In this document: piece after piece, positions 22,772-63,552 of the stretch
Numbering within the stretch: the stretch's first letter is position 1
How the letters are laid out: every line of letters starts with the position of its first letter
Made by a program: the position numbers and the translations under genes
Source: a virus
Taxonomy: Duplodnaviria; Caudoviricetes
IMG/VR virus record: IMGVR_UViG_3300021255_003843
Location: 1-64,000 of that record
Strand: one strand, 5' to 3'
DNA length: 64,000 bases
Notes under the pieces: generated by a model
The model's database searches: none
Told to the model about the DNA's origin: nothing
The model's input: the letters and a program-made list of their open reading frames with translations, nothing else

Positions 22772-22817
22772 AATCAACATTTTGCCGGCGTCGGCAAAAT
22801 GTTATGTAAATTTTCCT

Positions 22818-22907
22818 GATAATTTATCTGCAAAACTCAAGCTGTATTTTTACCCTACCAAGTTATCAGGTAACAATAGACATCTTGTCTGATTCAGATA
22901 GATTATC
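22818..22907. promoter_or_regulatory. Cluster of GATAAnTTATC-like operator sites
   Basis: GATAATTTATC 22818, ACCAAGTTATC 22857, GATAGATTATC 22897; the same motifs recur at 24782-24849. Confidence 0.5.
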
Positions 22908-24786: not shown

Positions 24787-24831
24787 ACCCACACAAGTTA
24801 TCCACCGATCTCCAACATAAAAAGTTTTTCA

Positions 24832-24871
24832 GATAACTTATCTGCAAAAGTTAGAAAGAAAGTGGTACTAT
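24832..24871 (+). promoter_or_regulatory. Candidate int promoter (extended -10) with adjacent GATAACTTATC palindrome
   Basis: TGgTACTAT at 24863-24871; palindrome at 24832-24842. Confidence 0.4.
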
Positions 24872-25055
24872 ACAGCAAGCACAAGTGTTCGATCCGGTTA
24901 CCGCCATTGACAACCATGCGCAGCACAGCTATACTGAAATTGATCTGCAGGCTCTCGTAAAGCAAACTGTACAAACTACTTTACGGGAACTCTCTTCAGC
25001 GCAGCTTGACAACGGCATAGATTGTACTTTTGATGTATCGAAAGGAGCAACCGAT

Positions 25056-44814: not shown

Positions 44815-45906
44815 TTATGCAAATGTAGGTTTATATAAAATATCGAGCTTCGTCAGATTGATAGTGCCGCCATTAGGATAAGCGCTGACATACAGCTCGT
44901 TCATTTTCAATATCTGCGCTTTGCCGTTCTTCTCATCGGTCACAGTTTTATTGATGCCAGCAGTGCTGTCGTCGGTCACGTTCACGATCTTCGCGCTCGT
45001 TCCGTCGGCGAAGTACACATACCGGTTGACCATGTCGTAATTAAACTTGCCGTCGCTCTTGAGCGTTTTACCATCTTCGCCGATCGTAATGTCGATGTTG
45101 CGGTAAGCTGGATAGCCGGGCTCAAGCTCGATGAATCCGTAATCGTGATACAGGAAGCCAGGGCTCGACACCGTGCCGTTTGTCAGGATTGTCTGCCCGT
45201 TCAGGCTATCGCACTGCACATAATGATTGTTCGCACAAACCTCTGGCGTAATTGCAACGAAGCGGCAGTTCTGTCCCGTTGTACGGTTAGAGATCATTAA
45301 GCCAGTGCCAACGTCGCCGGCAATCCGCACGGCGATCTTGGCGCGCTCAGTACCGGGGTTGTACAGCAGCAGCTCTTTGTTCTCGGTGATCGGCTCGCTT
45401 GCGGAAGCAAACGATGTTGTCATGTCGATTGTACCTTCAGGCAGCAAAGCAGAGTTCGCCAGCAGGCTTGCTTCGTCTTCGCAGCCATCAGGGATAGACA
45501 TATAGTCCGTTCTCGCGTAGGGGTAGTAGGCCCGTAATGAGATCGAGACGATGCCGTTCTGGTAGTTCGTCATCTGCCCGACATCAACGCCGGTCACTGT
45601 CGCCACGTACCAGCACCAGGGACGCTTCTTGAACACAAGCCGCCCTGTTGCGTTGCGGCGGAAGACACTGTAAATCCTAGTGAGCACGCCGTTGAGCACA
45701 TGTTGATCCTCATAAAAGCAGCGAAGAACAAAGTCCTTGGGTTGCAGTGTGCTACCGTAGTAATAGCCGCCGTCGTGACCGTCGAAAACTTGCTCATGCG
45801 GTTTATGCGTAGCAGGCTTATACACGTAGGTGTTGCTCAGGTCCGGCGCATATTCAAGCTCAAGATCTGCAATGTCGATCCCGTTAAAGGTGAATCCTCC
45901 AGTCAT
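44815..45906 (-). CDS. Distal tail protein (Dit)
   Basis: GFTFNG start, YYGS, GRLVF; directly after the TMP. Confidence 0.8.
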   Translation of the reverse strand: MTGGFTFNGIDIADLELEYAPDLSNTYVYKPATHKPHEQVFDGHDGGYYYGSTLQPKDFVLRCFYEDQHVLNGVLTRIYSVFRRNATGRLVFKKRPWCWYVATVTGVDVGQMTNYQNGIVSISLRAYYPYARTDYMSIPDGCEDEASLLANSALLPEGTIDMTTSFASASEPITENKELLLYNPGTERAKIAVRIAGDVGTGLMISNRTTGQNCRFVAITPEVCANNHYVQCDSLNGQTILTNGTVSSPGFLYHDYGFIELEPGYPAYRNIDITIGEDGKTLKSDGKFNYDMVNRYVYFADGTSAKIVNVTDDSTAGINKTVTDEKNGKAQILKMNELYVSAYPNGGTINLTKLDILYKPTFA

Positions 45907-45972
45907 AAATAACCTCCTTCTTTTCCATATATATCCATTCTCGAGTGTAATCATTATTTTACGCACTTGTAA

Positions 45973-46048: not shown

Positions 46049-49000
46049 TTAGAAAGAATAGCTCATCGTATTAAAGCCTTGCTTCGAAAGCTCTTTAACA
46101 AACTTCTGTCCAACACGCTGCGCGACCTCGTCAAAGTCGGCGTCATCCTTGAACTGAGCTTCTGTGATGTTGATCACAAGCTCGCCAATGTTCTGGCTGT
46201 TTCCACTGAACGAGTTGCTGTCGATATTGCTGATTGTAGAACGATAACGCACAACCTTTGCCTCGTCTAAGAAGCTGCGTATCAGAGCGGTATCGTCGGC
46301 GCTAAGGAAAGCTTCGGGCTTAGCTTTAGTGCCGTCAACCCAGGCGGGACCAGTGAAATCAACTAAACCACCGGAATCAAAGCCAAATAATTTCTTAACG
46401 TTATCGGCCAGTTTGTTGGCAGTAGCAGATATTGTTTGAGCAACTTTACTCGTTGAACCAATTTTGTCTGTGCCAGAAGAAGCAGTGTCGTAATGAAGAG
46501 CTCTGGAATTGTCAACGTAAGCGCCATTGTTATCTTGAACATTGATCCTGTCAGCGTCTGTTGTGGTATTCGCATTATTGCCAGACCCAGAACCGGATCC
46601 AGATTTCTTACTCGATCCATTTGTCCCAATCCCGCTCAGACCATTATCGCTATGACTATAGACAGCATCACGCTTTTGCGCAGCAATCCAGTTATCATAC
46701 ATCTCGCCCCAATCGTAAAGCATTTGTTTCTGCTCATCCTCTGAAGCATTGATGTAATCCTGACTTGCCATCATGTAATTCAGGAACAAGTCTTTGCCGC
46801 TCAAGATATCAGCGATTTCTTCCCAGTAAGTGTGCGTATAACCAATCATTTGCTCGTAGGTGTCGATCCAACCCTGGATCATCTGCTTCTGCGCAGCGTC
46901 CATTGCTAAGCCGTACTCTTCTACGTTAGCCTTCAACCAATCGAGCATACCTTCCTGGCTCATCTGCATTACCTGGTTTACCTCGTCAGCCAGATTGTTG
47001 GCGTCTTCAAGCCAGGCTTCAAGATCTTCGCCGCCGTAGTTAACGAAATCATCGTAAGCCTGCAGCTGGCTATCGATCTGTTCCTTTTGGTAATCAGCTT
47101 CATCTTCGGCAACATCCCATGCAATCTCTTTCTCGATCTTCGCAATCTGCTCTCTCAGCTTTGCGGCATCCTTTGTGCGGGTGCTGTCCATCTCAATCAA
47201 CGCAAGCTGTTTCTTGTACTCAGAAAGCTCTTCATACTTCTCAGCTTCGTCTTCAGCGTCTTTTCTACGCTGAAGACGTTCGTCAATCAGATTCTTTTCT
47301 TCTTCAAGCGCAGCGCGTTTCTTCTCGATGTCTTTCTCAATCAAAGCCCACTCAGCGCGATAGCGCGCACGGATCGCTTCGATGATGGCGTCTTGCATGC
47401 TGACAGTACCGGCAAGCATATCACGCTCGCGCTGGATACGGTTGTTAATCTCAGTGTCAACCTCGGTTTCAAGATCGGTATGCAGCTTCAGTATCGCCTG
47501 TTCGTTCTCTTCAATCTTCTTTGTATTCTCCTGAATCGCGATGTTTGCTTCCTCGATCGCTTCTTCATAAGCGAGTACACTGTCATACAGGCTCTTCCAA
47601 TCGTCGCTGTTCTTCTTCGTCCTTGCCATCTGCTTCTTCGTTGTTTCGATATGCTTCTCAAGCGTAGCAATCAGGCGCTTCTGAGCATCGTTCTCAAGCT
47701 CGATCATCCGGTTCTGGTTGCCTATCTCGCTGGCGTTTTCATACTTTGTCTCTTGATACTGGATCATCTTAATCTCGTGATTCAGCAGAGCTTGTTCGCG
47801 CTTCAGGCGTTCAAGCAGTTTCTGAGCAGCGGACTTACCTCCGCCGCCTCCGCCGCCTCCACCACCGCTACGTCCTTTACCAAGATCGGTAGTCTGGAAC
47901 TGTAGTTTAATATTGCTGCCGTCGGATGTAACGACACCAGTTGCTTGCATACCCATTCGCGAAAGTGTTGCCATGATCTCTTGAATTTGAGCTTGCGCTG
48001 CACCAGTTGCTTCGTTGGCAAGCTGAGACAAGTCAACAGTTACTTGACCTTTATCAACCAGCAACTGAATTTGGGATCCGTCCAAACCAAGATTCTGCAG
48101 TTTCTCGTTGAACGTACCTTGCAGACCTTCTGTCAACATGGTGCCAGCAGTATTCAGATAATTGTCAATCGCTTGCTTATCTTCAGTTTCCCAATCTTTA
48201 ATTGCTTGCTGTACAGGGGTGCCGCCTTTTCTTAAATCTTTTTTATCTAAGCCAGTACCTTGCGCAATAGCAGAGAGCACGTCGTTACTTCTATCACCTT
48301 TTTTGTATTTCTCTCGATAATACTGATTGTTAGCGATAGCATTGATGCCCTGCCGGAACGATTTCATATATGCATTAGAATCTTTAATGTCTCCGCTAAG
48401 TGCTCTAACGCCGCTTGCAATATCTTTTGAAGCTTTATTAAATTTATTATACTGTTCAATCTTTCTTGCAGAGAACTCGCCGTTCAAGGCGGTCATATCA
48501 TATGTAAAATCCTCTGTTGCATTGCCGATCGCATAAAGAAGATCAGCTCCACCTTCAATATCACTCAACCATTGAGCAAAATCTTCGTGACTTGCTATAT
48601 AAGATTGAACAGTAGCAAGCTGTTCTGTGTTTAAATTTAGCGAACTGCTTGTACCAAATCCTTCACCAAATTGCTGCCTGGCAATTTCCATATTGTTATT
48701 GAATAATTGATCTCGATAAAGAGGAGCATAGCCAGTGCCTTGGATCAGGGCATTCCGCATCTGGTCATATGTCCATCCGTGCTCGCTATTATAAAAGATT
48801 TCATCAAAGCCGCTGCCAAGCATACGAGCTCCTTCGTCCTTCTTCAGATAATCTAAAAGCTCGGCGTCGCTATTGATGGCCGCTATCAGAGATTCCTGAT
48901 CTGAACTTTGCATAGCCAATCTTGCCAAACGGTTCTTATATGTCTCCGCTTCTTTTTCAGGTTCAACATTAGCTGCTGCACCTTGCGTTAAGATTTCATA

Positions 49001-52000
49001 AGCAGTTCTGTTATCAGTTATTTCGCTAATGCCAGTAATTTGTCCATCTTTCTCTGTCAGCTGTAACCCAGACATATCAAGCAGTTGTTCGACAAGCTCT
49101 CTAATTTTTTGATTGCCATCCTTAGCCAGATCTGAAAGGCTACTGAGCTCAGGGAAAGCTCCAACAATTGCTGCTTCCAAACTATCTCGTATCTTTTGTT
49201 GATCGCCTTTTAAATCTTTTGCAAGATCTTTCAGTTTTTCAGGTGTCTTTTTATATTCTTTTATTTCTTCATCTGTGAGTTGAGCTTTTGTCTGTAGGTA
49301 CTCCCAATCAGTCTCAGTAAGATTAGCTTGATTATCATACATTGTTTGAGCGATTTGAGCTGCTTGACTTGTGCGTTGAAGCTCAGAGCCTTCTGCGCTT
49401 ATTAATCTTCTCTCTTCTCTGGTGGGTCCTTTTGTACGATCAATGTCTGCAAGCCTCTGCGCAAGTTCAGCGCTACCAGCTTTCAGCTCTCCATTGCGTT
49501 CTCGCTCATAAACAGTTTGATAAGCAGACCCGGCTTTAAGCGCATCTATCTGATATTTCTCAAGCTGCTGCCCAGACATCACAGCAGAGTAAGCTTCGTT
49601 AAAGCCCTGCACGTTATTTGTCAGATAATCAAGCATCGTCGGGTTATTCTTTCTCAACTCTTCGAGCTTTGCCTTGTCGCCATTGAGAGCAGCTGTAATG
49701 TATTCAGATACACCGGACGTTGTCATCCTCGTAGCGTTCGGAGCCGTAATACCGTACGCGCCGTTCAACAGCATGGCGCGAATAGCGTCAACGTCGCCTC
49801 GCTCTATAGCCGCAAGGAAATCAGTGTTACTAAGTAGATCTGTCGCAGCGGTTGTTTTATATCCATTTGTACGCTGTACTAAATCGACATAACTTCTGAA
49901 ATCGCCTAAATTGCCATTACTCAGTTCGAAAGAATTCAGCATTGCTTGATAATCAGTGCTTTGATCTCCCTGTCCAAGCGCTGCTCTTGTATCCAGCGCT
50001 CGTGCCAATTGCTGAGCCCATGTCAACTGCGCGTCAGCTTTGCCGCCATACTGCATCTGCCATTGCCCATTCTCGCCGCGCACAATTTCACCAAGCTGAG
50101 AAGCACGAAGTCGTTGATTCACTTCAGCTACTTGAGCATCTGTCATGCCAGTAATCATATCGCTTGTAGACTTCTGCGTCCTACCAGGCTTAGACATCCC
50201 AAGCATTACCTTGATGCGCTCTAAGAAGCCTTCTGGTTGCTTAGTTTCGTATGCGGCATCACCAAGCTGATCCACCAATATTTGGTCGACAGCTGTGCTG
50301 ACAGTAGTGTTGCGAAGCTTCTCAACCTCTTCCATTGCATATCCGTAATCATTTGCTAAGCTGCGTTCACCAGACTGATATTGCGCAATAACGTTGTCGC
50401 CAATATTAAAGGCATTCTTGATCGTATTCCAATCCTCTGGCCGCTGTATTCCTTGACCAGAAGTTAAGCGTTTATAAGCCTGCTGCACCTCATCGAGGTT
50501 AGTGATCTGCTGTCCAAGCTGATTCATCTGGCTAATGCTATCAATGATATTGCCGTTAGCAATCGTCGTCAGTTGATTACTGAGACCAGATAACACTTTA
50601 CCTTCTTCTTCGAGTGCGCCGATTACCTCATTGCGTATCGCATCGGCCAAAGTCTTAGCAGCTTTGGCCGCAGCTTCGCTGTCAGAGCCATACGTCGCAA
50701 GATAATCAAATAAACCAGGGAAGCTCTTTAACTGGCTTTGAATACCATCTTCTAATCCTGCAAACATATCTTTCGCACCGTCGCCAGCTTCCATCAGCTT
50801 ACTGATTTCTTCCAGCGTTTTGGCAGTTGTCATTTGCGGAGTATAACCAACAAACGGATTATCTGTAAACGATTCCTGCGCTTTCTTTTTTAGATCGTCT
50901 AATTCCTTTTGATCAACTGTTTCTCCATTGTTTTGTTTTTCAATTAACTGCAAATATCTGAGAAGCTCAGACGATTGACCAAGCTGACCAAGATATTTTT
51001 CACCAGCCTGCTGCAAGCTCATATTATTATCAAGCACATCTTTTATCATCGCTCTATTGGAAGCGTTTGAGAAAACACCGCTTGTGTTATACAAATTTTT
51101 CCAGTTATCATACCATAAGCCTTGCAATAAACTTTCTCCATTTTTTCCGACAAGATTACCGTTTTCATCAAACGACAGCCCGAGCCCGCTCATCACGTCA
51201 GAACCTACATCCGAATTGGCCGCATTAAGCAAGCTAATAAAAGCAGGTAAATACTGATTTTGTCTTATAAGCTCTTCACCGACGGACAGTTTTAAATCAT
51301 CCCAATTGTCTGCAGTAACTTCTTTATCAAACCCAGAAAAACTCTTCATCGATTCTATAAAGCTTTGTGCTTCTGCAAAGTCATATGATTTCTCTTGTAT
51401 GTCAGACATCTGTTGAATTGTACTAACCCAGTTGTTAATACCTTCGGTGGCAGTTTTTATCTCATCATCTGTTCCGTATAAGCCAGTAATCCAACCAGCT
51501 TGATCAGAAGTGATCCGGCTTAATGCCTGCAAGCGATTTAAGTTACGAGTATTGTACGCCTTTCGATACTCAGCTTCCGCTAACTGGTATTCGTCAGCTT
51601 CTCTATTTCCTATCAATCCAGACATTGTATATACATTTGACAAGATTCCAGAACCGCTGTTGTTCTGCCATATTGCCTGTTCAGTCGGAGTTAAATTATT
51701 CTCTATATATTTACCAAACGCTTGCGGTGTCGCAAATTGATTAGAGCTTATTAATCCATAGAGCTTATTAGCCAATTCATACTGGCTGTTTTCAGATTGC
51801 ATTGCTTTATACGGATTGTACAAGCTTCTGTTCTCATAAGTCAATCCGCTTAAATCTGATAAAGTCTTGCGATCAAACAGGCCATATGCGCCGCTATAAT
51901 CACTATATCTCGCGTTTAATCCAAGCTTGTTCATAGCAGCGTCAAGAATAGGAGTTCCGTATTGCGCACCAAGATAATCATAACTGTAAGCAGCATCGTT

Positions 52001-55000
52001 CTGAGCTTGTAACAATCTCGCATTTAAGTCCGTTGAGGCCCCTGTCATCGTAATATTTCTATGCGTTACATCAGCGTTTATAAAATCATTTTTGTTAATA
52101 CCGATTAAGCTGAACAAGTTTTCGTCAATAGCATCCAGTTCTGTACCATTGTTAAGATATTGACTGATTGTATTGTATGCTACAACCCTGTCATACACAT
52201 CGTTAATATTCTGTACCATTTTATCTCTAAGCGCTTCGCGGCTTGTTGTTTGAGCTGAACCATGTCCTTCAGATAAAGCTTGAATCACCATATTCGTAAG
52301 CCCATCGGACACTTGGCCACTTCTTTCTTGTAATCTTAACCATGCTGTCTTTAAGATATCCAAAGCGTTATTTCTATCGGCGGTAATCTTGCTGCTATTC
52401 AATGTTGTAATAGCGTTTGCAACATCCGATCCATACACACTGGTTATCGCAGCCAGCTCGTCTTCTGTAAGCTGAACATTAAAATTACCGCTGTTTAATT
52501 GGGCGGCGGCTTTAAGTACAAGCTTTTGAGCCTGCTCTTCTGTTGTAGCCATCGACGCTTGGTTGATATCAAAAGCAGCGTTCGGTCTGTTGTAATTAAC
52601 AGAGTTAAACCAATTTTCTTGGAACCCTTTGCCGTTCGTAAGACCCAGCTGCTCAGCTTGCGCCTGAGTCATTAAACCGGCGTGAATCGCAGAGCCATAT
52701 GTGTTTACCAAAGCTTGTCTATAATCACTGCTGTTCAAATACGCCACATACTCTCGAGCAGCTGCGGCTTCATTGCCAAAGAAATCTTTGTCGCTCTTGC
52801 CAGCGTAAGTAGAAGATCCGGCTTTAATAAGCTCCTGATATTGAGACGGAATATTTGCCCAAGCAATAGTGCCAGAAGCTAACCGATTTGCAAACTGTCC
52901 GGCGATCGCTTGATTACGCATGGTTTCAAGTTCTGTGTTGAAAGTTGTTTGCGCCTCATGTTTCTGAATTCCATTTCTTGAAAACTGGTCAGCTAACTCA
53001 ACGAGATCCTTGATCAGCGTACCGGCTTTCAAAACTTCTTCTATGCCTTCAGACTTAAACTTGATCTTAATCTCAGTTTCTAACTCTTTCTTGCGTGCCG
53101 CATCAGTAGTGTTTATCCACTCATACAGCTCTGGATATGCACTCTTGATCTCGTTTAAATACTCTCCATATTTTTTCTTAGCTTCATCGGCATTAAGATC
53201 AAAGTTGACAATATTTGAAGCGACAGATCTCAGCTGTCTGGATGTATAAAAATTGTTGCCGTTAGCGGCCAGAGGATTTTCTTCGACATATCCTTGACCG
53301 GTATATGTTGTTGAAAATTGTTTATCTTGTCCGATAGTTGTTCTATAACCAGCAGATTTTGCGGCCTGCGTAAACTGCTGAAACTCTTGTCGAGTAGACT
53401 CGTCGGTTATACTATTCGCGTAAAGTTCCATAATTCTATCAGTAAAATCAAGGCCTTTATTTTCTTTTCTGAGCTTATTCCACTCTTCTTCATCCATTGA
53501 TTTAACGAAACCGCCAAGCAGATCTTGCATATAAACATTGAACCCGTGCGCACTTTCTTCTCTTGCTTTATTTAATCTGCTATTTTCAAGTGTCATGTAC
53601 AAACCTCTGTTTGCATCAAAGTTTGTCCTATTAACACCCCACTGTTTAGCAATTAAATCGTATTGATCCGCACTCGCAGTACCAGCATTTATAGCATTGT
53701 ATGCAGCAAGTTCTTGACCATAACTCATATTACCAGACAAAATACTGGCCGTATAATCCGTTAAAGAGCTTTGTAAAACTTTACCTTGTAAATAATCTCT
53801 GAATTGATCCAACGTATATTTGCCGGTGCCAACTTTAAGATCTTTAATCATTTTAGCAAACTCTGCGTCGTTTGTCATAACGCCCGTCAGATTAGGTATT
53901 TGTTTTTCAACATTGGATATCATATCAGCCATATCTTGATAAGAGCTGGCTTGCATGGCATATGACAACACATTTTTATATACATCTGTATATTCTTTAT
54001 CATTTAAACTATAATCATTAACAAATTGATCTAAATTTCGATAAGCATTTAATCCAGCTGAAGTTTTTATTCTATTTATGTCAAAATCATCGTAATTTAA
54101 TTCAATAATATCAGACGTTTTTTGAATTATTGATTGTTTATAATTGCGATATGCTTCTTCAGCTTTATCTAAATCGTCAAAACCAAACAATTGCTTTCCA
54201 TTTTCATCGGTGTAGAAATATTTGTATTTATTATTTGCTTTCTTAGCTGCATCCTGGAATTGTTGTGGTGCTTTATATGTATTTAAATATCTTTGTAAAG
54301 ATTCATGTAATGCATCTGGCAAATCTTCAGGCAATACTTGAGCAGTATCTTTCAATAATTGATCCTTTAAATATTTCCGCGCTTCTTCATCTCCGCCAGT
54401 TAAGCTATCTGTATCTCCAAGAATTTGACCTATAAAAGTATCAACTTCTTCTTCTCGCTGTTGTTGATAAGCGTCGGTATATAATTTCTGAATTCCTTGT
54501 CCTTTTGACCCAATTAAATAATTCCTAAACGAGTTTAAGAACTCTTTTTGATGTTCAGGATTAAGATGCGTGATCGACGTAAATACATTTTCTGAAAACC
54601 TGGCTCTCGTTTCATTTCCAAGTTTCTTTAAAAAACTGACGCCATCATCAGTATTTAAGTATATCTTAAATTTATCGTTTAATTTAGGATCATTAACATC
54701 TATGCCGAGCATTGAAAACAATGCCTTTTGATAGAATTCTTCATATGCTTTTTCAGAAGAAAGATCAATATCGTAAATACTATCAGGCATTATATCCGCA
54801 TAATCAAATGTTATTGCAGAAGTTGCATCAGCAATGTCAGAAGGCAACGTACCAGATGCCCAGTTGACCAAATATTTTTCATTTAATGAAGTACCTACAT
54901 TTTTATGTTCAACAGAATGTTGCGATGCATTATAAGCATCTCTTAATTTATCTGGTTTATACGCCGCTTCATAAGCAGCATATTTCATATCAATAGTATC

Positions 55001-58000
55001 TTCATCTATGTCTCTTTGTAATTTATCTATATGATCCTGACCTTGAGTAACAAATATTTTCCAATTTTTGCCAGCTTCTTCTGCGCTTTCAAATCCTTTC
55101 TTAACACCGTCAAGCGTACCAGCTAAATCGTTAAGAGAACCTATAAAAGCCTGTTGATCAGAAGCGGACATATTGCCCTTTGCTTTTTCCCAAGCCTCGC
55201 CATATTTCTGAACTTCATCAATTTGTTTCTGTAAAGGTTGTAAACCTTCTTTTCTGTTTTTAGAATAAGAATCAGCTAGCTTAATTTGCTGTTGAGCCTT
55301 TAATGTCGGGTCGTTTTGATCTACAAAATTTTTACGAGCGGAACCGATAGCTCCGGCAACACCAAGAACACCAGCGATCGCGACAACGGAAGCCAGTGTG
55401 CTAACCAGACCCGCCGCGCCTTTGAAAGTGTTAGAGGCAGCATTAACGATCAGCAGTTTAGTGGCTAGCGCAGCAAGCGCGCCGCCAATCACAACAGCAG
55501 CGGTAGACACAGGCCCAGCAACAGACGTGAGATCTTTCAGTCCACCGACAAAGCCAGTAACCATATCGACAGAGCTCACAAAGAACTGGTTGCTCGACAT
55601 GCTTGAAACCAAGCCATCGTAAGTAGCCTTCAATTCTTCCATCGCAGCCGTAATACTCTTCACAGCGATAGCATACTTGCTATCTGTCGTGCCTTCACTA
55701 TTCTCGGCTAAGCCAAGTAATCTGTCTAACTCAGCACCGCCGTCTTCTCCCATGCCTTCCATCAAGGTCTGGAACACGTTCGTCTGCCTGCCGCCAGCCA
55801 TTGTATACGTAATGTTATTGCGCTGAATATCATTCAGACTTCCCCAAACCTTAGACAGATCGCGAAGCACATCGAAGCTGTTTCTAAAGCTCTTGCCACC
55901 GCTTTCACGTAACTGAATGCCAGCGCCGGACAGAGCTTTTTCAACATCGTTGATTGACACGGAAGCGCCCGTCTCGTCGTTGACATAACCCTGATTCGTA
56001 ACACGATTCATGCGTGAGAAGATCGTCTGCATAGCAGTACCGATTACCTGGCCGCTCATCTGAGTTTTACTGATACCGATCGTCAGCATTGACGTTAATT
56101 CTTCGTAGCTGACACCAGCAACCTTCGCAGCGGCAGCGGACTTCTGCATACCCTTGAAGATCTCATTAGCTGTCGTAGCCGCGCTGTCGCCCAAAGCGGT
56201 CAGCGCGTCCATCGCTTCTTCAGCGGAGTTTACGAGGCCGTTCTGTATAGCAGTGGTGATTGCCTTGCCGGCGTCTGTCACCTTTGCGCCAGTAACGGTG
56301 GCGAATTTGATGATCGCGCCAGTACGGTCCTCTACCTGCTGGTCATTTAAACCCTGGCGATAAAGGTCCGACTCAACGGATGCAACGTTAGCAACGCTCG
56401 TCTTCAGCTCGATAGCGCGATCGACCGTCGCCTTTTTGACAGCCTGCATCTGCTCATCCGTCTTCATCGTAATCGCCTGGATGCCACGCATCTGGCTATC
56501 AAACTGCACAACAAAGTTCTTAGCTTCGGTAAACGCCTGACGGATCATCTTCCTGCCGAAGCTCTGCAGCAGTTTATCCGCAGCGGTTGCCGCCGTCTCT
56601 AAACCGGCAGCAAGCATATTGCCAATTGTCTTGAAGTTGCCGGCAGTGTCGCCGAACTCCTTCATTGCTTCCTTCGTGCTCTCGAGTGCCTCACGATAAT
56701 GGTCAAGACTTGCCGTAGCAGAATCATATTGAGCCTGCGCAAGGTTCCTGTCTTCGTCGGTAGCGGCATTATCAATAGCGTTCTTGGCAGCAAGCTGCTG
56801 TTCTTCCATCCGCTTGACCATCATATCGTTGTAGTTATATTGGCTACGATACTGATCATACATGTTCTGACGCTGGAGGTAAGTGCGACTCAGAGGATCA
56901 ATTGCAGTTCTCGATTGCCAGTTGCGGTTCATCTGCTCGACCTGCATCTCGGCACGCTTAGCTTGCATGATCTCTTGTTCGCCGCGAAGCTCTGCCTGCT
57001 TCTGACGCTGGCGAATACGCTCGTTGTAAGCAGCTTCTTCGCGTTTCACGTAATCATCGTTAAAGCGTTCAAGCGGCTTAAGGCGCTCATCTTTTTGTTC
57101 TTGTGTCAGATCAGACTTGCGGATTCTGTCAGCAATCTTGCGAGCATTATCTACATTTTTCTGCGCTTTATCTCTGACAGCTTCAACACCTTCAAGATAC
57201 CTCGAGACATCAATATTTTGCTCGTCGTATTTACGCTTATAATCTTCGAAGGTAGTGTTTACTATCTTCGCTTCATCTTCTGTAATAAACCCAGTCTTCT
57301 GTTTCTTCCGGTTGATCCTGGCTTGCTCTTCTCTAAAATCAAGGAAAGATTTTTCTTTATCAATATCGTATTTATCAACATCGGCCATGTAGGTGCTTAA
57401 CACCTGAGCAACGCGAGCTCTATCCTGCAGTTTAAGATGCTGCTGTTGAAACATCGTATTCTCGTCGATTTGCTGAGTAAGCACAGAATACGGTTCCATC
57501 TTCTTAGCAACTTCTTCGTCGCTCATGCCTTGATCTTTATATACTTTCTCCAACCTTTCACTCAGCTGAGAAACAACTTCTTTCGCTTCGTTTGCTCCTT
57601 GCTTCAGCTGCTGGAACGGGTCTTTGATAACAGTACCTTTTATTTTATCAAGCAGATTTGTTATATCTGCTTCTTTCATCTTGCCAGTTTCTTCTCTCGC
57701 ACCAGCAAGATAAGTGTCAGTTTCTGCTAAACGCTCTTCGTAAAGTTTTCGCTCAGCTGGGCTGAACGGATACTTCTCACGATCCTGCAAATGTTTCTGA
57801 AGTTCATTGCGATAATCTTCGACAGCCTGCAGCTGGTTGTTATACTCTTCGAACTGAACATCGAGCGCGGAAACTTTATTGGCACGCTTACGATTTGTTT
57901 TATCTAGATTCTCATATAAGCGTTTTGCTTTAAGTTCAGTGGTGTCAGCAAAGTCTTGATTCATCTGCTGCATCAAGTCTTTGCGTCCACCAACCAATTC

Positions 58001-61000
58001 TTTAAACTCCTGCTTCATGGCAGGCGGCAGCTGATCAAACTCTTCGCCATTCTTAATAAAATCTTCAAGCTGTCTATAAACAAAGCCAACGTTCGCAGCC
58101 CTGCTTCCGTAATAAGTTTCTGCTTGAGACTTACCTTCAAGCTCATTCTCTTTCTTTAGAAGACCAGACAAGAACTGCTGCTTCACGCTGTCAACACTGG
58201 ACCGCAAAGTGTTAGCATGTTCTTGAGCTTGAATGTAAGTATAAGCCTTACCAAGTTGAGCATTCTCATCTAAGATACGCTGACGTTGCGCTGTTATATC
58301 GCGATAAGCCTGCATATCAATCCCGCTGCCAGCAGCGAGTTGATCAACTTCGTCGTATACGCGCGCTACTTGAGCAGCTTCGGCCTCGGCTTTCGCGAGA
58401 TCACCGTCTACCGCGTAAATACGTTTAGAAGCTTCAATAGCCTCTTCTTTTGTCATATCCGGAGAATAGCGAGCCTGATCTTCCTGCGGCAACGTACTCT
58501 TGATCTGATTCATCTGCTCTTCGTGCTGTTTCGTCTCGATCTCAATACGCTGTAATTCAGCTTGATTCTCCTGTAGCTTTTTCTCAACTGCTTCACGCTG
58601 CAGCACGGTATCCTTGCCAGTGAAAGTAAAATCTAAACCGCCCTTCTGCCCTAAGAATAATTCTGGCAGAAGCTTCGCAGGATCGTCTGTACGGAACACA
58701 GAGCTAATATTTGGCTGGTTGATACCTCTTTCGATGAAACCCTGGGCTGCAGTAATACCATATTCGTTCATCTTCTTTTGAACATAAGAATCGAACGAAA
58801 CCTCAGAGCCATCTTCCATTTTAATCATGCCACCTTGGGCTTTTTGATATGCTTCTTCCTCGATTTCACGCTTAGATGCTATAATCATAGCCTGCATATC
58901 ATCAAGCTCTTCTGCAGACATCGGAGCCATCGGGTTAGCAATATCATACGCCTTCATTGTGCGAAGGTTCTTCATCAACGCTTGCGTTGTTTCGCCTGCT
59001 CCGCCATAACCCATATGTTCAAGAGCTTGAAGCAGAGCGTACGTGCGTTCCATATTGACGCCTTTAGACGCAACCTGAGATACAGCGCGCATTGTTCCAA
59101 CGTCTGTTGTGTTAAAAATAGAACGGAAGTTGATCTTATCAAAACCAAGATCGCGAAGTTCCTTCATGTTGATAGGAATCTCATGTCCGTTTACTGTTGC
59201 GGTGTAGATGTCCTCAGGAGAAGGAACATCCATGTTGTCGCGGCCTGTTACGTTAAACAGGCGACTAAAACGAGACGGAAGCTTAGACCATTGAGCACCA
59301 GCGTATAAAGCCTTCTTCATCTGAGGAGTTGCTTCAGTAGATGTAGCGTGCTTTAACCCGGCGGTAGCTTGGTCGTAAGTAGGTGTGCTTTGAATTGCCG
59401 CTGCTAAAAGATCTTTATTTTCAGGAGCGTATATATCAAACATTGCTGCACGACGCGCAGAAGCGTCGGCAGCACCCATTTCGTTTGTAACATCTTGACT
59501 TGTTTGAAAGAATAAACGACGATGAAGCGGATTGTCTACATTTTTAGCCGCTTCGGCAGGCATATCTACCTTCTTAATAATGGGCTCCGTACTTCCTTCA
59601 AAATCCTGAATGGCTTTTTCTTGAATGGCAACTACTTCAGCAAACGCTTCAGCTAAATCGCCATAAATCGTTTTTGCTTTATCCCCATCTAAGTCTGCGC
59701 TACCAAGCGTCGCCAAATCCGCCTCAGAAGCGAATAAGCCACTCGTAGTTTGCCCGAAAACTTTATATATATCTCTCGCTAAATTAGCATAGTTTTTGCC
59801 AACAACAAAGTTGCCAAACAGAGAAGGGCTTCTTTGAACAGCAACTTTTTTAGCATCAGGTCTGGCAAAGTCAACAAGTTGACCCTTGTTTAATGCGAAC
59901 ACACCTTCGAGATCTTCGTCACTAATGGTTAAAGCTGTGCCAGTTTTTTCTTGATATTGTTGACGGATTCTTTTCAGCAAGTCAGACCTACTAAGGCCAT
60001 TGATCGTTTCAAGACCTAGTATGGACGCCAGAGGAGACTTATTGATAGTCTGGTTAATAACAGAAGGGTTTGTACCAAAATCTATCCATTCACCAGAAGA
60101 CATGCGCTCTGTCAATGATTCAATCTCGTTCTGCACCCAGCTTTGCACGGCACTGCTGTTCACGTTTAGCTTGCCGCTTCTGATCTGCTTACCGAGATAG
60201 TTGTCAGGATCAGCAAACAAATATTCTCTGATGCCAGCCTCAGAACTTAACAGGTTGATGCGTCTATCAAATTCGTCGATTTGTTGTTGACGCATCTTCG
60301 GACTGAGGTTCATAAAGGCCATTGCTTGAGTGCCGATACCTTTTGCTCTTGTTTCAGCATCATCATATGTGCTCATACTCGACATGCCATAATGCTGAAG
60401 CATCGCCGTAAAACCTTTGCTGATCTCTTCAGGAGTGTGGAAGTTCGAGTACGCCTGCATGTTTTTAATCGTAGAAGCATCAACGAAGCCATGGTAATCG
60501 GTTAAGTCAATGTTGCCGCCAACGCCAGGCAAGATAAACCGACCGTTGGCGTCCGTTAAGCCGGCAGCTTTTGCCCATTCGCCAACAGTCTTATAACCGG
60601 AGATTTGGTGGAACGTACCCTTGCCGGCAACACCCATACGGCCCTGGAAATCTTTTTCAGGTAGAATACCATCCATGAACCAGCCGATACCATCGGCAAG
60701 CTTCTGCTTCACATTTTCATCATTGATTTGAGACAGATCAACAACAGCAAAGTTGCGATTCTTGAAATTGCCATGTGTGTCCCAGCTGTTTGACCAACCT
60801 TTACCGGTTGCATCGAAGTGTTTTCTCAAGCTTTCAATGTCTTTGAATTCATAAGCAGAATCAACGAAATCATTCCAGAAATTAGCGCCCTTACCGTCGG
60901 CAGTTACAAAGCCATGCTTCTGAGCCCATTCCTGCTCACGCTTCATGACAGCTTCATAAGCTTGCTGCTCAATCATGCGGACACCAGCATGAGTACCAGT

Positions 61001-62410
61001 GCCGTGCATATTCTGAGCAATATACCTCTTGCCGCTCGGACCAATAGGCACAGCCTTGCCACTCAGCAACTCTTCAATAAAAGCCTGCTGTTTCGGATCA
61101 TTTCGATCATAACCATCAGCGCTGACAAAGATGACCTTGTCAGTAAAATCATTATGATGGCCTTCAAGGCCGAGCATTCTCGTGTTCTGCGATTCACTGA
61201 GCATGACGCGAGAACTTTTTCCGGTATTATTAAACAGATCGCCGACAGTGTATTTAGCAATCTCATATTGCTCAAGCATATGCTTTGTAGATCTACCGAG
61301 CTTCTCAAAACCTCTGCCAAGAGATCCCGCGTCAGACCAATCTTTGTCAGAACCAATGCCGTCAATGTCACTCATGATGCTAAGCAGACGGCCGGCAGAA
61401 GAAGAGGTCATGCGGCTTACAAGCTGGCGTGCCTCTTTGCTCGTCATATCTTCTAAGCCTTTGAAAATATCAACACGCTGGCTATCTCTGCCAGAAGCTC
61501 GCTTCACGAAAGACGTGAACAGGTTACGCCTGAAATCATCAAGCATCTGCGGAGTGATTTCTCTAATCAGAGACAGTTCACCATTGTCCTCAAGTTTCGT
61601 CATGCCTTTGACGCCGTAAGCAGCTCTCGCGGCTTCATCATTGTCTCTGATTAAATCTCTGAGCTGCGTTCGATTGTAGGCAGACAGGATGCGAGAACCA
61701 CTCGGCATTGCCATAGAAGTATAGCCTTTATTCTTATAACTCTCCCTGAAACTTGCAGGAAGCAGGTCTACAGGCTGAGCAGTGGTGTTATTATTCCTGA
61801 GAATATGCCCATACCTTGCGCGCTGATATTCTGCGGTGTTAAAAGCAGGAAGAACGTTCGGGATCAGAGCTTCAACATATTTCTGATAGACATCGCTGCG
61901 AGTAATGCCGCCATGTCCCTTAGACATAAAGAACTCTTCAAAGGGTTTACTCTTCACGAACTCTCCGGCGGCCGTCTTAGCTGTCAAGCCAGCTAAGCGT
62001 GACGCCTGAGCTTTCAGCATAGAGGACAACTCGCCGGTTTCAGCGCTCAACTGCTGTCTGATCGTTTGCGAAAATCCATCAACAATGGATTTCGCAAACG
62101 ACGCTCCGAAAGCACCGTCCTGCCCAAACAGAGAGCTCATAGTCCCAAGCTCTTTCAAACCACTCTGCACATCTTGTACAAAATCCTGGTCATCGGTTCT
62201 ATTATTTAAGCGCGCCTTCGAGATTTTTTCTTGCAGCATATCTACGATCGAACTTGCGCGCTCAAGGCCTTCGTTTAATGCGCCCGTCATACTCGGCGCG
62301 TCTTCAAACGAGGTGCGAAGTTCGTTAAACTCTTGCTTAAAGTTCCGTAGTTGGCCTACAGCTTTATCAAGGTCTAACACTTCTACACTCAAAGATAGTT
62401 TGTCAGACAA
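46049..62410 (-). CDS. Tape measure protein (5453 aa) with N-terminal two-barrel RNA polymerase-like domain
   Basis: AAAGGAGG RBS and TTG start; TP901-type core around aa 1970-2250; position before Dit; DGIG, FQGR..GKG, RSPSL, ADLDGD motifs at aa ~573-910. Confidence 0.88.
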   Translation of the reverse strand: MSDKLSLSVEVLDLDKAVGQLRNFKQEFNELRTSFEDAPSMTGALNEGLERASSIVDMLQEKISKARLNNRTDDQDFVQDVQSGLKELGTMSSLFGQDGAFGASFAKSIVDGFSQTIRQQLSAETGELSSMLKAQASRLAGLTAKTAAGEFVKSKPFEEFFMSKGHGGITRSDVYQKYVEALIPNVLPAFNTAEYQRARYGHILRNNNTTAQPVDLLPASFRESYKNKGYTSMAMPSGSRILSAYNRTQLRDLIRDNDEAARAAYGVKGMTKLEDNGELSLIREITPQMLDDFRRNLFTSFVKRASGRDSQRVDIFKGLEDMTSKEARQLVSRMTSSSAGRLLSIMSDIDGIGSDKDWSDAGSLGRGFEKLGRSTKHMLEQYEIAKYTVGDLFNNTGKSSRVMLSESQNTRMLGLEGHHNDFTDKVIFVSADGYDRNDPKQQAFIEELLSGKAVPIGPSGKRYIAQNMHGTGTHAGVRMIEQQAYEAVMKREQEWAQKHGFVTADGKGANFWNDFVDSAYEFKDIESLRKHFDATGKGWSNSWDTHGNFKNRNFAVVDLSQINDENVKQKLADGIGWFMDGILPEKDFQGRMGVAGKGTFHQISGYKTVGEWAKAAGLTDANGRFILPGVGGNIDLTDYHGFVDASTIKNMQAYSNFHTPEEISKGFTAMLQHYGMSSMSTYDDAETRAKGIGTQAMAFMNLSPKMRQQQIDEFDRRINLLSSEAGIREYLFADPDNYLGKQIRSGKLNVNSSAVQSWVQNEIESLTERMSSGEWIDFGTNPSVINQTINKSPLASILGLETINGLSRSDLLKRIRQQYQEKTGTALTISDEDLEGVFALNKGQLVDFARPDAKKVAVQRSPSLFGNFVVGKNYANLARDIYKVFGQTTSGLFASEADLATLGSADLDGDKAKTIYGDLAEAFAEVVAIQEKAIQDFEGSTEPIIKKVDMPAEAAKNVDNPLHRRLFFQTSQDVTNEMGAADASARRAAMFDIYAPENKDLLAAAIQSTPTYDQATAGLKHATSTEATPQMKKALYAGAQWSKLPSRFSRLFNVTGRDNMDVPSPEDIYTATVNGHEIPINMKELRDLGFDKINFRSIFNTTDVGTMRAVSQVASKGVNMERTYALLQALEHMGYGGAGETTQALMKNLRTMKAYDIANPMAPMSAEELDDMQAMIIASKREIEEEAYQKAQGGMIKMEDGSEVSFDSYVQKKMNEYGITAAQGFIERGINQPNISSVFRTDDPAKLLPELFLGQKGGLDFTFTGKDTVLQREAVEKKLQENQAELQRIEIETKQHEEQMNQIKSTLPQEDQARYSPDMTKEEAIEASKRIYAVDGDLAKAEAEAAQVARVYDEVDQLAAGSGIDMQAYRDITAQRQRILDENAQLGKAYTYIQAQEHANTLRSSVDSVKQQFLSGLLKKENELEGKSQAETYYGSRAANVGFVYRQLEDFIKNGEEFDQLPPAMKQEFKELVGGRKDLMQQMNQDFADTTELKAKRLYENLDKTNRKRANKVSALDVQFEEYNNQLQAVEDYRNELQKHLQDREKYPFSPAERKLYEERLAETDTYLAGAREETGKMKEADITNLLDKIKGTVIKDPFQQLKQGANEAKEVVSQLSERLEKVYKDQGMSDEEVAKKMEPYSVLTQQIDENTMFQQQHLKLQDRARVAQVLSTYMADVDKYDIDKEKSFLDFREEQARINRKKQKTGFITEDEAKIVNTTFEDYKRKYDEQNIDVSRYLEGVEAVRDKAQKNVDNARKIADRIRKSDLTQEQKDERLKPLERFNDDYVKREEAAYNERIRQRQKQAELRGEQEIMQAKRAEMQVEQMNRNWQSRTAIDPLSRTYLQRQNMYDQYRSQYNYNDMMVKRMEEQQLAAKNAIDNAATDEDRNLAQAQYDSATASLDHYREALESTKEAMKEFGDTAGNFKTIGNMLAAGLETAATAADKLLQSFGRKMIRQAFTEAKNFVVQFDSQMRGIQAITMKTDEQMQAVKKATVDRAIELKTSVANVASVESDLYRQGLNDQQVEDRTGAIIKFATVTGAKVTDAGKAITTAIQNGLVNSAEEAMDALTALGDSAATTANEIFKGMQKSAAAAKVAGVSYEELTSMLTIGISKTQMSGQVIGTAMQTIFSRMNRVTNQGYVNDETGASVSINDVEKALSGAGIQLRESGGKSFRNSFDVLRDLSKVWGSLNDIQRNNITYTMAGGRQTNVFQTLMEGMGEDGGAELDRLLGLAENSEGTTDSKYAIAVKSITAAMEELKATYDGLVSSMSSNQFFVSSVDMVTGFVGGLKDLTSVAGPVSTAAVVIGGALAALATKLLIVNAASNTFKGAAGLVSTLASVVAIAGVLGVAGAIGSARKNFVDQNDPTLKAQQQIKLADSYSKNRKEGLQPLQKQIDEVQKYGEAWEKAKGNMSASDQQAFIGSLNDLAGTLDGVKKGFESAEEAGKNWKIFVTQGQDHIDKLQRDIDEDTIDMKYAAYEAAYKPDKLRDAYNASQHSVEHKNVGTSLNEKYLVNWASGTLPSDIADATSAITFDYADIMPDSIYDIDLSSEKAYEEFYQKALFSMLGIDVNDPKLNDKFKIYLNTDDGVSFLKKLGNETRARFSENVFTSITHLNPEHQKEFLNSFRNYLIGSKGQGIQKLYTDAYQQQREEEVDTFIGQILGDTDSLTGGDEEARKYLKDQLLKDTAQVLPEDLPDALHESLQRYLNTYKAPQQFQDAAKKANNKYKYFYTDENGKQLFGFDDLDKAEEAYRNYKQSIIQKTSDIIELNYDDFDINRIKTSAGLNAYRNLDQFVNDYSLNDKEYTDVYKNVLSYAMQASSYQDMADMISNVEKQIPNLTGVMTNDAEFAKMIKDLKVGTGKYTLDQFRDYLQGKVLQSSLTDYTASILSGNMSYGQELAAYNAINAGTASADQYDLIAKQWGVNRTNFDANRGLYMTLENSRLNKAREESAHGFNVYMQDLLGGFVKSMDEEEWNKLRKENKGLDFTDRIMELYANSITDESTRQEFQQFTQAAKSAGYRTTIGQDKQFSTTYTGQGYVEENPLAANGNNFYTSRQLRSVASNIVNFDLNADEAKKKYGEYLNEIKSAYPELYEWINTTDAARKKELETEIKIKFKSEGIEEVLKAGTLIKDLVELADQFSRNGIQKHEAQTTFNTELETMRNQAIAGQFANRLASGTIAWANIPSQYQELIKAGSSTYAGKSDKDFFGNEAAAAREYVAYLNSSDYRQALVNTYGSAIHAGLMTQAQAEQLGLTNGKGFQENWFNSVNYNRPNAAFDINQASMATTEEQAQKLVLKAAAQLNSGNFNVQLTEDELAAITSVYGSDVANAITTLNSSKITADRNNALDILKTAWLRLQERSGQVSDGLTNMVIQALSEGHGSAQTTSREALRDKMVQNINDVYDRVVAYNTISQYLNNGTELDAIDENLFSLIGINKNDFINADVTHRNITMTGASTDLNARLLQAQNDAAYSYDYLGAQYGTPILDAAMNKLGLNARYSDYSGAYGLFDRKTLSDLSGLTYENRSLYNPYKAMQSENSQYELANKLYGLISSNQFATPQAFGKYIENNLTPTEQAIWQNNSGSGILSNVYTMSGLIGNREADEYQLAEAEYRKAYNTRNLNRLQALSRITSDQAGWITGLYGTDDEIKTATEGINNWVSTIQQMSDIQEKSYDFAEAQSFIESMKSFSGFDKEVTADNWDDLKLSVGEELIRQNQYLPAFISLLNAANSDVGSDVMSGLGLSFDENGNLVGKNGESLLQGLWYDNWKNLYNTSGVFSNASNRAMIKDVLDNNMSLQQAGEKYLGQLGQSSELLRYLQLIEKQNNGETVDQKELDDLKKKAQESFTDNPFVGYTPQMTTAKTLEEISKLMEAGDGAKDMFAGLEDGIQSQLKSFPGLFDYLATYGSDSEAAAKAAKTLADAIRNEVIGALEEEGKVLSGLSNQLTTIANGNIIDSISQMNQLGQQITNLDEVQQAYKRLTSGQGIQRPEDWNTIKNAFNIGDNVIAQYQSGERSLANDYGYAMEEVEKLRNTTVSTAVDQILVDQLGDAAYETKQPEGFLERIKVMLGMSKPGRTQKSTSDMITGMTDAQVAEVNQRLRASQLGEIVRGENGQWQMQYGGKADAQLTWAQQLARALDTRAALGQGDQSTDYQAMLNSFELSNGNLGDFRSYVDLVQRTNGYKTTAATDLLSNTDFLAAIERGDVDAIRAMLLNGAYGITAPNATRMTTSGVSEYITAALNGDKAKLEELRKNNPTMLDYLTNNVQGFNEAYSAVMSGQQLEKYQIDALKAGSAYQTVYERERNGELKAGSAELAQRLADIDRTKGPTREERRLISAEGSELQRTSQAAQIAQTMYDNQANLTETDWEYLQTKAQLTDEEIKEYKKTPEKLKDLAKDLKGDQQKIRDSLEAAIVGAFPELSSLSDLAKDGNQKIRELVEQLLDMSGLQLTEKDGQITGISEITDNRTAYEILTQGAAANVEPEKEAETYKNRLARLAMQSSDQESLIAAINSDAELLDYLKKDEGARMLGSGFDEIFYNSEHGWTYDQMRNALIQGTGYAPLYRDQLFNNNMEIARQQFGEGFGTSSSLNLNTEQLATVQSYIASHEDFAQWLSDIEGGADLLYAIGNATEDFTYDMTALNGEFSARKIEQYNKFNKASKDIASGVRALSGDIKDSNAYMKSFRQGINAIANNQYYREKYKKGDRSNDVLSAIAQGTGLDKKDLRKGGTPVQQAIKDWETEDKQAIDNYLNTAGTMLTEGLQGTFNEKLQNLGLDGSQIQLLVDKGQVTVDLSQLANEATGAAQAQIQEIMATLSRMGMQATGVVTSDGSNIKLQFQTTDLGKGRSGGGGGGGGGGKSAAQKLLERLKREQALLNHEIKMIQYQETKYENASEIGNQNRMIELENDAQKRLIATLEKHIETTKKQMARTKKNSDDWKSLYDSVLAYEEAIEEANIAIQENTKKIEENEQAILKLHTDLETEVDTEINNRIQRERDMLAGTVSMQDAIIEAIRARYRAEWALIEKDIEKKRAALEEEKNLIDERLQRRKDAEDEAEKYEELSEYKKQLALIEMDSTRTKDAAKLREQIAKIEKEIAWDVAEDEADYQKEQIDSQLQAYDDFVNYGGEDLEAWLEDANNLADEVNQVMQMSQEGMLDWLKANVEEYGLAMDAAQKQMIQGWIDTYEQMIGYTHTYWEEIADILSGKDLFLNYMMASQDYINASEDEQKQMLYDWGEMYDNWIAAQKRDAVYSHSDNGLSGIGTNGSSKKSGSGSGSGNNANTTTDADRINVQDNNGAYVDNSRALHYDTASSGTDKIGSTSKVAQTISATANKLADNVKKLFGFDSGGLVDFTGPAWVDGTKAKPEAFLSADDTALIRSFLDEAKVVRYRSTISNIDSNSFSGNSQNIGELVINITEAQFKDDADFDEVAQRVGQKFVKELSKQGFNTMSYSF

Positions 62411-62592
62411 TTCAAACTCCTCCTTTGTATTTTATTGACGTATACTTACCGATATGCTACAGTCCGCAGGAGTATATGTCTTATGGATTTATAGTTTTTT
62501 AAAATTTGGTAAAAAAATAAGGGACAGGTATGCCGTACAATTCGCAGAGCTGATATTAAAAGATTTATTTTACGGAAGCGATTGAGTTTATC

Positions 62593-62621
62593 TTGACATC
62601 CTCCCTGTGTTTGAGTACAAT
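62593..62621 (+). promoter_or_regulatory. Near-consensus sigmaA promoter
   Basis: TTGACA-17 nt-TACAAT. Confidence 0.8.
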
Positions 62622-62649
62622 AAACGTACTAAAAACAAGGAGGTCTCCT

Positions 62650-62982
62650 ATGAACTACAATGATGACCAGGCCGACATCATGAGTATGATCGATAATTTC
62701 AACGAAGAGGAATATTTTAAAACACATGACGTTCCTAAAGCTCAGGATGATCCTAAAGTAATTCTTGCAGAATTCCTTCAGAGATTAGAGTGGGTCTACG
62801 GCGCACGCTTAGGAATCACTGATCCTCGCAAGGCAAAACTCAATGTAGCTAAGCACTTGATGTCTGTAAACAAAAACCTCAGGCCTCACGTCTTATATCC
62901 TGAGTTCTTCAACGGCAACGATTATCCAATTCAATCTGCTTTTGATAAAGAAGCAAATAAAGATACAGAGTATCCGTTCTAA
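62650..62982 (+). CDS. Moron-like hypothetical protein, opposite to the tail operon
   Basis: AAGGAGGT RBS before ATG 62650; own promoter. Confidence 0.8.
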   Translation: MNYNDDQADIMSMIDNFNEEEYFKTHDVPKAQDDPKVILAEFLQRLEWVYGARLGITDPRKAKLNVAKHLMSVNKNLRPHVLYPEFFNGNDYPIQSAFDKEANKDTEYPF

Positions 62983-63417: not shown

Positions 63418-63510
63418 AATCAATTTCCTTTCTTCCTTTTCGATTCGAAATGTACGGGTATATTATAATATTATAATGTTCCCGTACATTTCGCTAAGGG
63501 ACAATTAAAC

Positions 63511-63546
63511 GTGTCGCCTCCGCGCATTCAAACGCGGAGGCGACAC
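63511..63546 (-). terminator. Stem-loop downstream of 63553-63789
   Basis: GTGTCGCCTCCGCG/CGCGGAGGCGACAC. Confidence 0.7.
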
Positions 63547-63552
63547 ATGTTT

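Follow-up and report, generated by a model that had tools for sequence, protein, structure and literature searches.

The window analyzed here is the first 64 kb (64,000 nt) of a 105,495-bp caudoviricete virus record, IMGVR_UViG_3300021255_003843, whose completeness is estimated at 95%. On its minus strand lies a gene for a tape measure protein (TMP) of the tail, 5,453 residues long, and the N-terminal part of this protein contains a two-barrel RNA polymerase domain related to YonO of phage SPbeta. The fold of this domain, its homology to YonO, the conservation of its catalytic residues and the identity of the whole protein as a TMP are established below. The broader reading, to which we would give odds of about three in four, is that the TMP bears a complete polymerase of the YonO/RNA-dependent RNA polymerase (RdRP) clade, which would be carried in the virion, injected into the cell and used to transcribe the first phage genes. 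The parts of the gene to which the argument refers are as follows.

46049-62410, minus strand: TMP with N-terminal RNA polymerase (single open reading frame, PF10145, PHROG TMP families, fusion conserved)
61226-62410, minus strand: leader, residues 1-395, family-specific and mostly helical (AlphaFold2 (AF2) model, predicted local distance difference test score (pLDDT) 79.6)
58841-61225, minus strand: YonO-like single-chain two-barrel RNA polymerase core, residues ~396-1190 (hhalign, AF2, Foldseek and VIA)
60617-60700, minus strand: first-barrel (beta-like) motifs DG (G574) and Q589-x-R591-x5-K597-G598 (invariant, in the YonO register)
59594-60067, minus strand: second barrel (beta'-like), residues ~782-939, with R860-S-P862 and D906/D908/D910 (double-psi barrel matches, YonO register)
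56411-58660, minus strand: coiled-coil-rich linker, residues ~1251-2000, from the polymerase to the tape measure core (composition)
55793-56413, minus strand: PhageMin_Tail (PF10145) domain, residues 2000-2206 (88.6 bits against a cut-off of 33.2, E 6.8e-25)
55334-55525, minus strand: two hydrophobic segments (putative transmembrane hairpin), residues 2296-2359 (Kyte-Doolittle)

The gene is one uninterrupted frame of 5,453 codons that begins with a TTG start codon at 62410, with a strong Shine-Dalgarno sequence (AAAGGAGGAG, 62417-62426) 6 nt upstream. A first-pass annotation of the window had picked out four motifs, in the order known from single-chain two-barrel polymerases, in the N-terminal part of the TMP. 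When recomputed, all four fell exactly where they had been placed.

60683-60694, minus strand: DGIG, residues 573-576
60617-60649, minus strand: FQGRMGVAGKG, residues 588-598
59819-59833, minus strand: RSPSL, residues 860-864
59681-59695, minus strand: DLDGD, residues 906-910

For the length and composition of the TMP, chance predicts about two bare DxDxD motifs, and three are seen (at residues 906, 2467 and 5423); the expectation for DxDGD is 0.15. Since the bare count is close to chance, DLDGD alone is weak evidence, and the case for a polymerase therefore rests on conservation and fold rather than on the motif by itself.

Conservation was assessed with an exhaustive HMMER search using residues 150-1340 as the query. 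It returned 80 relatives, all from metagenome assemblies and none of them named; a word-based homolog search gave only three metagenomic proteins, likewise without names. About 32 of the HMMER relatives are giant proteins of 3,699-6,777 residues with the homologous region at an equivalent position (residues ~170-1300), the conserved portion of the leader starting at about residue 170. The 32 N-termini have a median pairwise identity of 25% and share only 17 invariant columns, namely S407, K537, G574, Q589, R591, K597, G598, K649, G693, Q695, P862, N873, D906, D908, D910, Y1012 and K1020, of which nine (G574, Q589, R591, K597, G598, P862 and the three aspartates D906, D908 and D910) lie within the four motifs. 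The Asp triad, DxDxD, is present in 32 of 32 homologs with G, A or S at the fourth position. The earlier expectation that DxDGD would be conserved in homologous TMPs thus stands for the triad, whereas the strict form occurs in only about half of them.

The readable neighbors in the loci of these homologs are structural genes of the SPbeta type, encoding YonB, YomX, YomW, the YomU tube protein and YomG. No match was obtained by tblastn among the INPHARED phages, and a related-locus search of viral contigs and genome contigs found no close relatives of the locus. When the family profile was run against 50 bacterial genomes bearing YonO, there was one match, a metagenome-assembled genome (MAG) of the Acutalibacteraceae with two distant giant members (4,942 and at least 4,910 residues; stretches C1 29000-48000 and C9 60000-79999). 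Their N-termini align with the family at E 2e-36 and 2e-27 in hhalign; one has DFDGD at residue 976, and the other has only DADFD at residue 960, so that its triad may be altered. The matching 136-kb contig of this MAG likewise encodes a tyrosine integrase. No integrated copy was found there, and because the contig is phage-like at both ends, it does not demonstrate an integrated prophage.

The nearest sequence family is that of YonO. We aligned the 32 TMP N-termini in hhalign with a profile of eight YonO-family sequences (SPbeta, D-1873, Perkons, PMBT24, TR-TP1, c-st and both paralogs of the present genome), which gave a probability of 97.9 and an E-value of 4.4e-13; reversed or column-shuffled YonO profiles gave E 0.7-1.0. 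With a more permissive alignment setting, TMP residues ~396-1190 match positions 43-792 of the 807 in the YonO profile, which is almost its whole length. The TMP motifs DG, R..KG, RSP and DxDGD fall in register with those of YonO, DG and Q-x-R-x5-KG aligning with DG.G and R..KG, and RSP and DxDxD with RSPHL and D.DGD. A shallower comparison of seven against four sequences kept the same register at E 0.0027 and a probability of 11%; the statistical strength of the link therefore depends on alignment depth. In language-model feature space, 24 of 30 ESM Atlas matches are clusters bearing Pfam RdRP. The curated RdRP models PF05183 and phrog_8308 have no match in the TMP or in six homologs, and both match a free 947-residue paralog encoded elsewhere in the genome. 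Curated thresholds thus place the TMP domain outside this family, as a distant sister group.

The predicted structure leads to the same enzymes. An AF2 model of residues 380-1200, built on 37 aligned sequences, has a mean pLDDT of 90.1 and a predicted template-modeling score of 0.86. In a Foldseek search of the PDB, all of the top 50 matches were two-barrel RNA polymerases, in agreement with the first-pass proposal that such a domain is embedded in the TMP. They included QDE-1 (E 2e-12), RDR2 (E 2e-8), crAss-like phi14:2 gp66 (E 1.8e-4), P74-26 gp62 (E 6.7e-3) and bacterial beta' chains (E 0.03-0.1). Among viral predicted structures (BFVD), phage proteins named RNA-dependent RNA polymerase came out on top (E 7e-15 and 2e-12). 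VIA-align, run against all PDB representatives, ranked maize RDR2 first (Z 15.7 over 513 residues, root-mean-square deviation 4.1), followed by P74-26 gp62 (Z 15.1), QDE-1 (Z 14.3) and P23-45 gp96 (Z 11.2 for 8h2n and 10.9 for 8h2m, with model residues 26-657 against gp96 327-1077). The largest subunits of cellular RNA polymerases scored Z 7-8, and isolated double-psi barrels, which aligned to residues ~782-939, about 6. YonO by hhalign, and QDE-1, phi14:2 gp66 and P23-45 gp96 by structure, are the four enzymes that had been named beforehand for comparison, and the domain matches each of them.

The barrel matches, both isolated double-psi barrels and largest cellular subunits, fall at model residues ~395-560 (Z 6-8), and the stretch matched by the isolated barrels, residues ~782-939, is the one that holds RSP and DLDGD. 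The first-barrel motifs lie on a predicted beta-hairpin (strands 208-213 and 217-224 in model numbering); the barrel of bacterial beta carries a conserved GR.G.KG. Modeling thus supports a two-barrel RNA polymerase fold for TMP residues ~396-1190, with basic residues of the beta type and the Asp triad in the beta'-like barrel. For the leader, AF2 predicts long helices at residues 14-135 and a confident alpha/beta part at residues ~210-380; residues 1-395 had no structural match in the PDB by Foldseek (best E 0.49) and no Pfam or PHROG match.

That the 5,453-residue protein is the tail tape measure protein is clear from its TMP domain, its hydrophobic segments and the order of the tail genes. 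In addition to the PhageMin_Tail match, ten PHROG TMP families match residues ~1600-2700 (best E 3e-26), beginning within the coiled-coil linker, in which the combined fraction of E, K, Q, R, A and L is 0.52-0.54 and that of G and P 0.04-0.08. Kyte-Doolittle means over 19 residues reach 2.1-2.2 at residues 2296-2359, the only two such segments in the whole TMP, and a transmembrane hairpin is a usual feature of TMPs. With 0.15 nm allotted to each residue, the ruler part would give a tail of about 620-820 nm. The TMP gene is followed downstream by two further tail genes, and in homologous loci a distal tail gene likewise adjoins the TMP gene downstream.

44815-45966, minus strand: distal tail protein (Sipho_tail), directly downstream of the TMP gene (PF05709, E 2.1e-5)
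40695-44792, minus strand: tail-tip protein with Prophage_tail and the YOMG_N domain of SPbeta YomG (PF06605, E 8e-9; PF24049, E 1.2e-6)

A second candidate for a polymerase-related segment of the TMP was discarded. PF21867 (vRNAP_dom_2, virion RNA polymerase domain 2) matches residues ~3575-3632 (window 51515-51688) at E 0.0028, but with 18.4 bits against a cut-off of 27 and in a helical region, so that the match is probably due to chance. Directly upstream of the TMP start, the late tail operon holds a small antisense gene on the plus strand (window 62593-62982; ATG at ~62649 with its own Shine-Dalgarno sequence), with a near-consensus sigma-70 promoter, TTGACA-17-TACAAT, at 62593-62621. A bidirectional terminator hairpin lies at 63509-63548. 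Genes on the opposite strand are also found at the equivalent spot in homologous loci, for example genes for leucine-rich repeat proteins in one of them.

Elsewhere, the genome encodes two free YonO-family polymerases and an integrase.

79478-81988 of the genome (outside the window), plus strand: free YonO-family polymerase, 836 residues, DFDGD (phrog_8308, E 4e-58)
97324-100167 of the genome (outside the window), plus strand: free YonO-family polymerase, 947 residues, DVDGD (35% identical to SPbeta YonO, E 1e-121)
24885-26135, plus strand: tyrosine integrase (PF00589, E 1.8e-18, with SAM-like N-terminal domains)

The 947-residue protein clears the Pfam RdRP threshold, and its match to phrog_8308 has E 1.5e-174; judged by its sequence, it is a true YonO ortholog. 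Between the two paralogs, identity is only 24% (BLASTP E 1e-18). Together with the TMP domain, they bring the number of two-barrel polymerases encoded in this genome to three. A reverse transcriptase gene (RVT_1, E 8e-18; genome 95931-97121, plus strand) lies ~200 nt upstream of the YonO ortholog.

Structural genes of the YomG, YonB, YomX, YomW and YomU types place the phage, on gene content, in the SPbeta lineage. Its host is probably a Gram-positive anaerobe, with a hint of anaerobic Clostridia, because the phage carries an anaerobic ribonucleotide reductase and the best YonO relative comes from the Acutalibacteraceae MAG mentioned above, where it sits on a contig of 100 kb. The integrase bears out the first-pass description of the phage as integrase-carrying. 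An operator-like palindrome, C[AT]GATAA[CT]TTATC[TA]G, has four copies. Two of them (window 22816-22835 and 24830-24849) lie on either side of the genes immediately upstream of the integrase, and each follows a terminator hairpin; the other two (genome 83066-83085 and 83140-83159) are outside the window, in an intergenic region between divergent genes. All four may be binding sites for the repressor of a lysogeny switch, and the phage is possibly temperate on the strength of the tyrosine integrase and the palindromes only.

Positions 1-22500 of the window hold a large block of auxiliary genes on the plus strand. It encodes ThyX, anaerobic NrdD, a RuvC-like protein, PhoH, ClpP, dUTPase, NAD synthase and NAPRTase, as well as an RNA ligase with a PHA02142 OB domain, a tail lysozyme-like protein and an RNA-repair-type HAD_SAK_2 domain. 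Genes for tRNA-Leu (TAA), tRNA-Thr (TGT) and tRNA-Trp (CCA) lie at 11883-12472, and those for tRNA-Asn, tRNA-Ile (TAT) and tRNA-Gln are outside the window.

The closest precedent in architecture is gp96 of Thermus phage P23-45 (PDB 8h2m and 8h2n; also found in P74-26, G20c and TSP4), a TMP-fused RNA polymerase that was detected in virions and transcribes the pre-early genes (Chaban et al. 2024, PMC10770324). The precedent invoked in the first-pass annotation is therefore real. In both cases, the TMP has about 5,000 residues, an N-terminal two-barrel polymerase (residues 327-1124 in gp96 and ~396-1190 here), a DxDGD triad and a transmembrane part further on, and the genome contains at least one free two-barrel polymerase. 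The structure of gp96 aligns with our model at Z 11.2 over 364 residues, although the model is closer to RDR2, gp62 and QDE-1 than to gp96. However, there is no detectable sequence similarity between the two proteins (hhalign E 0.35 and 0.2), and the family profile finds no gp96 chain among the PDB sequences. The TMPs described here are therefore a different family with the same architecture, and the fusion probably arose separately from that in the Thermus phages. Further differences are that no metallopeptidase domain was detected by Pfam in the present TMP, and that it belongs to a phage with an SPbeta-like backbone, probably a Gram-positive anaerobic host, an integrase and two free paralogs rather than one.

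YonO of SPbeta itself, for which activity and the role of the triad have been characterized, transcribes late genes (Forrest et al. 2017, PMC5467207). It is a free protein of 839 residues that acts on late genes after induction and has not been reported as a virion component; here, by contrast, the core is part of a virion structural protein and is too divergent to be recognized by HMMER, Pfam RdRP or phrog_8308. Structurally, the closest enzymes are QDE-1 and RDR2 (PDB 2j7n, 7y7t, 7w84 and 7eu0), at Z 14.3-15.7 over 513-531 residues and with the same single-chain two-barrel layout and DbDGD signature, but they are eukaryotic RNA-silencing enzymes that copy RNA, with an identity of 11-13%, and PF05183 misses the TMP domain. 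Delivery of a polymerase with the DNA, within a very large virion protein, is also known from crAss-like phi14:2 gp66 (PDB 6vr4) and N4 gp50. The former belongs to the two-barrel enzymes (Foldseek E 1.8e-4, Z 6.3) and the latter has an unrelated T7-like fold; neither is a TMP, and both belong to short-tailed phages. In the literature searched, P23-45 was the only TMP-fused case found. No YonO-type or integrase-carrying case was described, in line with the earlier statement that none is known from a temperate phage, and the text and supplements of PMC10770324 do not mention YonO-type TMP fusions.

From these comparisons, a mode of action can be proposed. The protein reads, in order, as a 395-residue helical leader, the polymerase, the coiled-coil linker, PhageMin_Tail, the transmembrane hairpin and about 3,000 further ruler residues. 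By analogy with P23-45 gp96, the polymerase would travel in the virion as part of the TMP. From what is generally known of siphophage tails, the N-terminus of the TMP is expected at the head-proximal end of the tail, in which case the polymerase would be the last part to leave, with the DNA right behind it. The enzyme could enter the cell as the ejected TMP forms a conduit through the membrane, and might then transcribe the first phage genes independently of the host RNA polymerase, after which the two free YonO paralogs (836 and 947 residues) would take over later transcription. Because the virion enzyme would be absent on prophage induction, any genes that need it would be expressed only after infection.

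Several points weigh against this proposal. The link to YonO is significant only with deep alignments, and searches of Pfam, PHROGs and PDB sequences (phmmer and family profile) find nothing in the first 1,400 residues of the TMP. For the TMP polymerase itself, we infer activity, virion presence and injection by analogy; the release by proteolysis and the influence on lysis or lysogeny that the first-pass annotation raised are likewise hypothetical. A repeat search and a search of intergenic k-mers gave no convincing recurrent promoter motif that the fused enzyme might use. Moreover, a folded polymerase of ~90 kDa cannot sit in the lumen of the tail tube, so that packaging would need an unfolded state or another location; P23-45 poses the same puzzle. 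Finally, the TMP is a late gene, and removal of its N-terminus ahead of assembly would leave the enzyme to work in the producing cell instead.

Three alternatives, namely cleavage ahead of assembly, a role other than catalysis and a different template preference, are possible but less likely than injection of an active enzyme. If an active polymerase were cut from the TMP during tail assembly and never packaged, it would be a third, late-made polymerase of the producing cell, and the fusion would serve only to couple its synthesis to late expression. The misfit between the folded domain and the tube would then be explained, the polymerase is set apart from the TMP core by a long coiled-coil linker, a ClpP-like protease is encoded at 8017-8661 of the phage, and some tape measure proteins are proteolytically processed. 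Yet the fusion has been kept, with the domain equally placed, in about 32 divergent proteins, two free YonO paralogs are already available for intracellular use, the fused enzyme of P23-45 was detected in virions, and neither a cleavage site nor a link to the protease was found here. We consider this course of events unlikely.

Less credence still is due to the idea that the two-barrel fold was kept while RNA polymerization was lost, leaving the domain to act structurally, for instance as a plug, as an adaptor for tail completion or head joining, or by binding the DNA end. An identity of only 9-14% to active enzymes and the failure of Pfam RdRP to match would fit such a change of function. However, at a median identity of 25%, half of the 17 columns that never vary hold residues required only for catalysis, namely the Asp triad plus the R/K pair in the first barrel, and exapted enzymes usually lose their catalytic residues. 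Least probable is an active nucleotidyl transferase with another job, be it RNA-templated synthesis, priming of replication or pulling in the 105-kb genome by transcription: the best structural matches, QDE-1 and RDR2, are RNA-dependent enzymes, the tail is predicted to be very long, and genome entry of the T7 type is driven by transcription, but the only characterized TMP fusion transcribes pre-early genes, and pulling the DNA in by transcription would be something that an injected, transcribing polymerase does in addition, not a rival explanation.

Beyond the delivery of an active polymerase by the virion, a more far-reaching scheme can be offered only tentatively. It holds that a second, independent fusion arose from a YonO-type paralog in an integrase-carrying, SPbeta-like lineage of gut Clostridia, that the virion-fused, 836-residue and 947-residue enzymes form a cascade of three polymerases that frees the phage from the host RNA polymerase, and that a set of genes expressed only on infection feeds anti-defense functions or the choice between lysis and lysogeny.

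Experimental evidence that a tape measure can deliver a polymerase dates from 2024 and covers only one small group of Thermus phages. The present locus has the same kind of architecture as in P23-45, built from a different, YonO-like lineage and found in large SPbeta-like phages of anaerobic Gram-positive bacteria of the gut or rumen. The existence of at least ~32 divergent metagenomic relatives suggests that joining a polymerase to the TMP is a recurrent solution. About 800 residues that current family libraries miss can now be annotated, and three related polymerases within one genome are open to comparison. In phages that carry an integrase, genes dependent on the virion enzyme would be on at infection and off at induction.

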